Below are positions 56,305 to 57,447 of a DNA stretch of 64,000 nucleotides, piece after piece. The DNA lies in IMG/VR virus record IMGVR_UViG_3300001336_000001, positions 42,836 to 106,835 of that record. One strand, given 5' to 3'. Made by a program: the position numbers and the translations under genes. How positions within the stretch are numbered: the first letter of the stretch is position 1; each line of letters starts with the position of its first letter. A model generated the notes under the pieces. The model did not search any database. It saw nothing but the letters and a program-made list of their open reading frames with translations, and had not been told where the DNA came from. Source of the DNA: a virus (Duplodnaviria; Heunggongvirae; Uroviricota; Caudoviricetes).

Positions 56305-57447
56305 TTAGATTAAATCTTTAAATAAATCAGTTTCCATTGATTGAATGGCTTTACCTAGCTCTGGACCTGGTTTAGTTATGTTAAATTTTCTCATAGCTTC
56401 TTCACCACCAACTCTAGGTAATTTAACGTATTCTTCAAAAGAATCTAATAATTGTGATGAGATACCCATATTTGAACCGAAGTTTCTCAACTGGTCAGAA
56501 CTTAACCCAGAATTTACAAATAATGTTTTAAGTTTTGGTGTGATTTCAGGTTTATTGGGGTCAAGATTAAGCATTGAAATTAATGCTGATATCTTTTTAA
56601 TTTCATCGCTACTGTATTTCAATTCGTTTAACTTTTTAGAAAGAACAGATACCTCATTAGGTGATAGTATCATAGATATTAACACCAAAGGGTCATCATT
56701 ATCGATAAATCTTTTGTTTAATTTTAACCCCCTAAAAACCCAATCAAACAAATTGTACTTATCAACCATTTGTAAGTATTGTTTTGTTGACTTAGCTGAG
56801 GCTAAACCTTTAATAAATTCATCTCTAATTCTTTCACCTGAAACACCCTTAAGGCTTGCATCTTTTATTAATGCGGAATCAATTTCTGAATCTAATTCAC
56901 TACCAAACCTACCAGCAAATCTAATTGACCTTAGAATGCGTAATTTGTCTTCATTAAATCTTTCCTCGGCTTTACCAACCGTTCTAATTATACCTTTTTT
57001 TAAGTCATTAATACCACCAACCAAATCAACAACCTCACCAGTTTCGATATCATAAAACAAAGCGTTGATTGTTAAATCTCGTCTCATAACATCTTGCTCA
57101 ATGGTTCCGTATTTGACACTATCTGGTCGTCTACCATCAGAGTAATCACCATCGGTCCTAAACGTAACCACCTCGTATTCACCTTGGTCGGTAAATACAT
57201 TTATAACACCAAAGGCTTTGCCAGTTGCTAATGTCTTTAACCCAACTTTTTGCATCATAGTTTCAACAGTATCTGGTTCGGCATCCGTTGCTAAATCGTA
57301 GTCCTTTATCGGTTTATTCAATATTCCATCACGAACCGCACCACCAACAACCATTAATGAATAATTATGATTTTTAAATATTTCACTTAACCTAAAAATA
57401 TCACTAGGTAGGTTCAAACTAAATTTAAATCTAATTTCATGTTTCAT
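56305..57447 (-). CDS. tRNA nucleotidyltransferase (class II CCA-adding enzyme / poly(A) polymerase family)
   Basis: Head-domain motifs GGAVRDGIL...DYDLAT and RRDLTINALFYD. Confidence 0.75.
   Translation of the reverse strand: MKHEIRFKFSLNLPSDIFRLSEIFKNHNYSLMVVGGAVRDGILNKPIKDYDLATDAEPDTVETMMQKVGLKTLATGKAFGVINVFTDQGEYEVVTFRTDGDYSDGRRPDSVKYGTIEQDVMRRDLTINALFYDIETGEVVDLVGGINDLKKGIIRTVGKAEERFNEDKLRILRSIRFAGRFGSELDSEIDSALIKDASLKGVSGERIRDEFIKGLASAKSTKQYLQMVDKYNLFDWVFRGLKLNKRFIDNDDPLVLISMILSPNEVSVLSKKLNELKYSSDEIKKISALISMLNLDPNKPEITPKLKTLFVNSGLSSDQLRNFGSNMGISSQLLDSFEEYVKLPRVGGEEAMRKFNITKPGPELGKAIQSMETDLFKDLI

Follow-up and report, generated by a model that had tools for sequence, protein, structure and literature searches.

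The window analysed here is a 64,000-nucleotide stretch of the Caudoviricetes virus record IMGVR_UViG_3300001336_000001. At positions 56305..57447, on the minus strand, it carries a 380-amino-acid open reading frame with an ATG start, the longest at its site in an open reading frame check of the window. This gene, a predicted tRNA nucleotidyltransferase (NTase), belongs to a large same-strand tRNA repair and maturation island, and it shares its strand with all 19 tRNAs called by ARAGORN, which fall into two arrays, the second beginning 3 kb downstream of the NTase gene. The features on which the following analysis draws are, by position:

27463..29148, minus strand: tRNA array 1, with 10 ARAGORN tRNAs and one weak element found by Rfam only
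27463..27553, minus strand: the sole CCA-bearing ARAGORN tRNA, 91 nt, with a long variable arm and anticodon CTT
27908..27976, minus strand: Rfam-only tRNA-like element, weak (34.6 bits), with a 4-bp acceptor stem and an anticodon-like GCC, followed by CCA
36162..36917, minus strand: calcineurin-like metallophosphoesterase (Pfam Metallophos, 1.7e-14)
37829..39016, minus strand: RlaP, an RNA-repair-pathway Pol-beta nucleotidyltransferase (Pfam RlaP, 5.2e-24)
42920..43957, minus strand: second RNA ligase, PF09414 type (Pfam RNA_ligase, 1.8e-10)
44571..45080, minus strand: HD_4 (RelA/SpoT-type HD hydrolase) domain protein (Pfam HD_4, 4.6e-11)
45153..45953, minus strand: Thg1-like 3'-5' nucleotidyltransferase (Pfam Thg1, 5.5e-25; PHROG 4717, 1.1e-70)
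45957..47075, minus strand: T4 Rnl1-type RNA ligase (Pfam RNA_lig_T4_1, 4e-13)
48589..49506, minus strand: PNK-like P-loop kinase (Pfam AAA_33, 8e-10; PHROG 505 "polynucleotide kinase", 3.5e-15)
51292..53319, minus strand: tRNA array 2, with 9 ARAGORN tRNAs and one Rfam-only tRNA; none with CCA, all with C74
52951..53025, minus strand: Rfam-only tRNA of array 2, missed by ARAGORN, with the tail G followed by CAA
56305..57447, minus strand: predicted class II tRNA NTase

The original prediction had set the gene within a repair island, and both the content of the locus (a Thg1-like protein, two ligases, a kinase, RlaP, an HD_4 protein and a phosphoesterase) and its conservation bear this out, the order NTase, tRNA array, kinase, Rnl1 being kept in relatives of 61-72% identity. 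Syntenic tRNA arrays lie near the enzyme in the related loci L002 and L004, which also carry an Rnl1 gene downstream of the array, and 24 of the 28 related, non-redundant loci have tRNAs at most 10 kb away from the gene for the enzyme. At the orthologous position of the kinase, L004 and L005 show a weak tRNA_lig_CPD match too. The roles of several neighbours can be proposed in outline. The phosphoesterase possibly takes part in RNA end healing, and the HD_4 protein could be a small alarmone hydrolase; any connection with toxins that add pyrophosphate to tRNA 3' ends is speculative. For the Thg1-like protein, 5'-end repair seems more likely than G-1 addition, since the tRNA-His of the window (53159-53242) already templates G-1. 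The island also holds the same type of kinase and Rnl1 pair as that used for anticodon-break repair in T4.

We then turn to the enzyme itself. Of the motifs named in the original prediction, GGAVRD...DxD and RRDLTINA are both in the translation, and the remaining ones complete the set A to E: motif A reads VVGGAVRDGILNKPIKDYDLATD (GGxxRD...DxD; GGAVRD...DYD, residues 35-51), motif B MRRDLTINAL (RRD), and these are joined by DLVGG, EDKLRILRSIRF (ED..R) and ERIRDEF. In class II NTases, the GGxxRD...DxD of motif A supplies the catalytic carboxylates of the Pol-beta-type head domain, while the RRD of motif B recognizes the ribose and the EDxxR of motif D serves as an amino acid template for CTP and ATP. 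All of the key positions (G35, G36, R39, D40, D49, D51, R122, R123 and D124, and likewise E166, D167, R170, E205, R206 and E210) are invariant in 37 homologs of 60-89% identity. In a sequence search against solved structures, the strongest match is the CCA-adding enzyme of Bacillus stearothermophilus (Bst; 1MIV, 1e-39), and in this alignment D49 and D51 fall on the catalytic D40 and D42, and D167 and R170 on the nucleotide-templating pair D154 and R157. The flexible loop of these enzymes sits between motifs A and B and is needed for the addition of A76; CC-adding enzymes have it deleted. In the phage protein this region (residues 95-112, TFRTDGDYSDGRRPDSV versus TFKTDGDYEDYRRPESV in Bst) aligns to 1MIV with zero gaps.

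To our knowledge, sequence alone gives no certain separation of class II CCA-adding, A-adding and poly(A) enzymes, as is apparent from domain-swap work. The profile search for a PolyA_pol/CCA head domain that the original prediction had proposed returned Pfam PolyA_pol at E=1e-38 (133 bits versus a cutoff of 23), together with PolyA_pol_RNAbd at E=5e-6. The top NCBIfam model is PRK13299, the Bacillus-type CCA-adding enzyme, which covers the full length of the protein (residues 24-375) at 211.7 bits, short of its equivalog cutoff of 290 bits. Since none of the curated NCBIfam equivalog cutoffs is reached, we name PRK13299 as the closest family by profile but withhold a strict equivalog assignment. 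The phage family PHROG 2244, "tRNA nucleotidyltransferase", matches residues 31-252 (E=1.4e-53, 183.8 bits), and PRK10885, the E. coli CCA enzyme with an HD domain, matches residues 32-231 only (90.9 bits versus a cutoff of 451); an HD domain is absent from the 380-residue product. An AlphaFold (AF2) model built from an alignment of the 37 homologs has a pLDDT of 91.6, with a sole dip at residues 101-110 (pLDDT 59), where the flexible loop is expected. Against the PDB, the highest-ranked Foldseek matches of this model are all CCA-adding enzymes (Planococcus, Bst and human TRNT1; TM 0.69-0.74), the human tRNA-bound structure 8CBM matching over the full length with TM 0.74. The helical neck, body and tail, which bind the tRNA acceptor and T arm, are thus represented, both in the full-length fold matches to CCA enzymes and in the PolyA_pol_RNAbd hit. 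A MenT-like toxin or another small NTase was also considered and rejected: such folds match the head domain only, with E>0.05.

Two other class II activities share enough of this architecture to be weighed against CCA addition. An enzyme with partial activity, adding only A or only CC and needing a partner, would have the same head domain, and A-adding structures do align to the model at TM 0.52-0.64; the missed equivalog cutoffs would also fit such an enzyme. However, the flexible loop is present and gapless relative to Bst, the A-adding model NF041569 gives only 48.9 bits (cutoff 1440), and the lowest class II scores of all belong to CC-adding structures (TM 0.51-0.58). Moreover, no second gene of the PolyA_pol family was found among the window ORFs scanned, and the tRNA genes of the window, described below, provide C74 only, so that neither half-activity alone would complete their ends. 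We therefore regard a split activity as very unlikely. We give hardly any credence to a poly(A) polymerase of bacterial type, whose task would be to tail RNAs for their decay or regulation instead of acting on tRNA ends, although the enzyme shares a homologous head and neck and the same catalytic motifs with E. coli poly(A) polymerase I (pcnB). At first glance the resemblance is strong, with 169.8 bits to the pcnB model TIGR01942 and a sequence match of 6e-31 to the E. coli structure 3AQM, and one phage homolog is annotated as pcnB. Under closer inspection, these matches cover head and neck only (residues 24-239 for TIGR01942) and stop at about residue 239-255 of 380, leaving body and tail unmatched, whereas the CCA model and structures span the whole protein. 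In addition, the pcnB cutoffs are missed widely (305.65 for TIGR01942; 702 for PRK11623, which scores 118.6 bits), the fold similarity is lower (TM 0.56), and the clade-wide linkage to tRNA arrays and tRNA repair genes differs from the context of pcnB. Because profiles and model both rank true CCA-adding enzymes best, we assign the product, on predicted activity, as a complete class II tRNA NTase of the CCA-adding type. This class had been proposed in the original prediction, and profiles, 37-homolog conservation, model and Foldseek agree on it.

Among characterized enzymes, those of Bst (1MIV, PRK13299) and Planococcus halocryophilus (6QY6) are the closest in design, with the same head-neck-body-tail arrangement and no HD domain. 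Both have motifs A to E, the flexible loop and the templating Asp/Arg in common with the phage protein, and their folds agree with its model at TM 0.69-0.72. The phage enzyme is nevertheless only about 25% identical to them over the full structural alignment and is part of a lineage specific to phages, the nearest cellular relatives found reaching about 42% identity at most. The E. coli CCA enzyme (PRK10885) has the same head domain and presumably catalyzes the same reaction, but it carries an HD phosphohydrolase domain; in the phage, end healing by a phosphatase or phosphodiesterase would need separate genes of the island. Annotated phage NTases (Caulobacter phages CcrColossus and CcrPW, Mycobacterium phage Phabba, and the huge phages LR745206 and Lak) belong to the same PHROG 2244 family, and CcrPW also pairs its enzyme with a Thg1 gene. 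The enzyme of the window differs from these in being at most 36% identical and in sharing a tight syntenic block with a tRNA array, a kinase and Rnl1.

An identical protein is encoded on a 287,855-bp metagenomic contig and in the Logan assembly of SRR1177011, and more than 100 homologs of 60-89% identity were found, many of them on contigs of 260-325 kb. The source clade is one of uncultured metagenomic jumbo phages of about 260-325 kb and about 30% GC. Among deposited phage genomes, 505 records hold a homolog, the closest at 36% identity, and when the 10 kb surrounding the gene were compared with deposited phages by megablast, neither a relative nor near-identical DNA was returned, so the phage is known only from metagenomes. 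After misbinned phage contigs, the nearest cellular relatives are from Bdellovibrionota and Patescibacteria. A scan of cellular genomes with two peptide patterns only, which settles neither the origin of the enzyme nor the host, returned no Bacteroidota homolog. The host is probably a member of the Bacteroidota, because the 536-residue product of 34105-35715 (minus strand) ends in a C-terminal T9SS sorting domain (Por_Secre_tail, 6e-12).

We next consider the 3' ends of the tRNAs on which such an enzyme would act. Genes were called with ARAGORN and Rfam, and their 3' ends were anchored on each 7-bp acceptor stem. At the gathering threshold, Rfam confirms 14 of the ARAGORN genes and adds 2. The original prediction held that only the first tRNA encodes its CCA, and this stands for the ARAGORN set, where a templated CCA occurs in 1 of 19 genes (27463..27553, N73-CCA); the weak Rfam-only element at 27908..27976, though, also precedes a CCA. 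The first gene has the acceptor stem AGGTGTG/CGCACCT followed by A73-CCA, and its Rfam tRNA match (49.6 bits) ends at 27466, just ahead of the CCA. The element at 27908..27976, which ARAGORN does not call, may be a degenerate or unusual tRNA. That the other tRNAs are without CCA was confirmed in so far as the full triplet is absent, and 18 of the 19 tRNAs require the addition of at least C75-A76. They are not simply CCA-less, however, since all of them keep C74.

This partial tail is far from random. C74 is present in 19 of 19 window tRNAs (with the tRNA-His read as G-1:C73) and C75 in 1 of 19, on a strand in which C makes up 12% of the nucleotides, so that universal C74 has P of about 5e-18. 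If C74 is taken as given, chance alone would yield about 0.9-1.3 full CCAs in 19 genes, and the single CCA of the window therefore need not be selected. The pattern was followed through the window arrays, the related loci L002-L034 and the controls L040 and L042-L044. Among the 186 tRNAs of the related loci, C74 is found in 172 (about 92%), C75 in 18 and A76 in 134; CAA (82) and CTA (34) are the most frequent tails. Initiator-like tRNA-Met accounts for 6 of the 12 CCA-bearing genes of these relatives, in agreement with the survey of Ardell and Hou (PMC5143459).

It would be tempting to read the C74-only tail (C-A or T-A) as a clade-specific signature tied to the enzyme, and this reading was rejected on the controls. 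In unrelated phages C74 is found in 35 of 35 CCA-less tRNAs (huge phages LR756504, 6 of 6, and LR756501, 17 of 17; Streptomyces phage pSt2308, 7 of 7; Mycobacterium phage Phabba, 5 of 5), while T4 has it in 2 of 4. No tRNAs flank the enzyme genes of CcrPW and Cellulophaga phage phi4:1, which had been tried as further controls. Keeping C74 while dropping C75 is thus a general habit, almost always followed, of CCA-less phage tRNA genes, and C74 retention has the look of a constraint that applies to CCA-less precursors in general. The L15 loop of RNase P RNA contains a conserved G with which C74 forms a pair, and RNase Z is blocked by a complete CCA (PMC1874595); it is plausible that this combination of pairing and blocking is the reason for C74 in phage tRNAs. 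The pattern bears on how CCA-less precursors are processed and is possibly more useful than the gene itself.

Whether CCA is templated in phage tRNAs tracks host lineage. The two proteobacterial phage arrays that were sampled template it in full (Vibrio phage, 20 of 20; Rhizobium phage, 9 of 9; together 29 of 29), whereas the tRNAs of actinobacterial and huge phages are mostly without it. Ardell and Hou found in their survey that CCA is missing from most tRNA genes of Bacteroidetes and present in those of Proteobacteria (PMC5143459), so the CCA-less tRNAs of the window phage probably follow the norm of its probable host phylum. Hundreds of phages, many of them with proteobacterial hosts, carry an annotated homolog, so that having the enzyme does not depend on lacking CCA; together with the CCA-templating phage tRNAs, this means that the maturation of CCA-less tRNAs is not the general reason for which phages keep the gene. 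The argument of the original prediction that the phage matures its own ends because its tRNAs lack CCA is weakened on both counts. Furthermore, a CCA enzyme is almost certainly encoded by the host itself, as host tRNA genes without CCA demand one. Hence the phage copy most likely brings extra capacity and independence late in infection and does not fill an absolute gap. T4, for comparison, leaves the completion of its CCA-less tRNAs to the enzyme of the host.

Taken together, the best explanation of the locus, to which we assign a probability of about 0.75, is that the phage encodes a template-independent class II CCA-adding enzyme that completes the ends of its own tRNAs and rebuilds damaged ones; its activity, the order of processing and the benefit to the phage are deduced from the features above. 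Both arrays would be transcribed as multi-tRNA precursors, which host RNase P and a host 3' nuclease (RNase Z or exonucleases) would trim to N73 or N73-C74. The phage enzyme would then finish these ends to N73-C74-C75-A76, with the Asp167/Arg170 pair acting as the protein "template" that selects CTP and then ATP, and the same reaction could rebuild nibbled or damaged CCA ends on phage and host tRNAs alike. The neighbouring genes would complement it, the Thg1-like protein at 5' ends and the kinase, Rnl1 and RlaP at anticodon breaks.

Alternatively, the main value of the enzyme may lie in counter-defence, that is, in rebuilding tRNA 3' ends after host toxins or nucleases have removed, extended or blocked the CCA, together with the neighbouring repair genes. 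We hold this possible yet not probable as the chief role, and the original prediction had already raised repair after CCA-targeting toxins, with which the island would be compatible. The gene is embedded in a dense set of RNA-repair genes (Thg1-like, Rnl1, the second ligase, kinase, RlaP, HD_4 and phosphoesterase), and its homologs are common in phages of Proteobacteria, where, if CCA is templated as in the two sampled arrays, only repair would make sense. Iyer et al. class the CCA enzyme of jumbo phages with RNA repair, ranking it second in frequency among the RNA-repair nucleotidyltransferases of these phages and Thg1 as sporadic (PMC7824862), and toxins that modify tRNA ends, such as MenT, are on record (PMC11541572, PMC10435456). 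On the other hand, a CCA-adding enzyme alone cannot strip extra nucleotides or a 3' pyrophosphate, maturation would be sufficient where 18 of 19 tRNAs need their CCA completed anyway, and no host, toxin or defence system was identified in this analysis. The two roles are not mutually exclusive and can coexist. A more elaborate proposal, which we consider quite unlikely, is that this phage lineage is tuned to the N73-C74 ends of its own tRNA genes ("CA-completing") and forms, with the Thg1-like protein, RlaP, HD_4 and the ligases, a self-contained pathway of the phage that restores the two ends of tRNAs after defences directed at the acceptor end, C74 serving as a handle for RNase P processing or as protection against over-trimming.

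With completion and repair of tRNA ends as the preferred reading, the gene is one more divergent, conventional member of a function already catalogued for jumbo phages. The arrangement of a phage CCA enzyme beside CCA-less tRNAs is already described for large phages, and Al-Shayeb et al. list the enzyme within the translation toolkit of huge phages (PMC7162821). The annotation is of value as an anchor for a tRNA maturation and repair island that is conserved in a clade of uncultured phages of about 300 kb, which probably infect Bacteroidota. The C74 rule and the long variable arms of some tRNAs are more curious than the enzyme.

Long, type-II-like variable arms occur in five tRNAs of the window (27463-27553, 27696-27778, 28407-28490, 52641-52727 and 53159-53242), whose anticodons are CTT and TTT (Lys), TTG (Gln), GAT (Ile) and GTG (His). 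Throughout the clade (L002-L034), long forms of the Asn, His, Ile, Met, Gln, Lys and Trp tRNAs are found repeatedly beside others of normal length. One guess is that they are nuclease-resistant variants; a literature search on long-variable-arm phage tRNAs gave no relevant report. Within 27463-27778, three tRNA-Lys genes (CTT, TTT, TTT) follow one another, two of them long-armed. The tRNA-Lys is a classic target of anticodon nucleases, and in T4 such cuts are mended by the kinase and Rnl1 pair.

The related loci show some further variation around the enzyme. L002 has a tmRNA gene (1905-2279) upstream of it, and tRNAs with the amber-suppressor anticodon CTA occur in seven of the loci L002-L034; neither is present in the window. 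In several of the loci L027-L034, a single tblastn segment recovers no more than half of the enzyme (residues 105-376 or 3-172), and in L002 a LAGLIDADG gene lies directly upstream of the enzyme gene. In some genomes the gene for the enzyme may be split or may have been entered by homing elements. In the window itself, a TnpB/IS605 OrfB-type gene (29868-31049, minus strand) with Cas12f1-like_TNB, OrfB_IS605 and HTH domains, a mobile-element nuclease within the phage genome, lies directly upstream of tRNA array 1.
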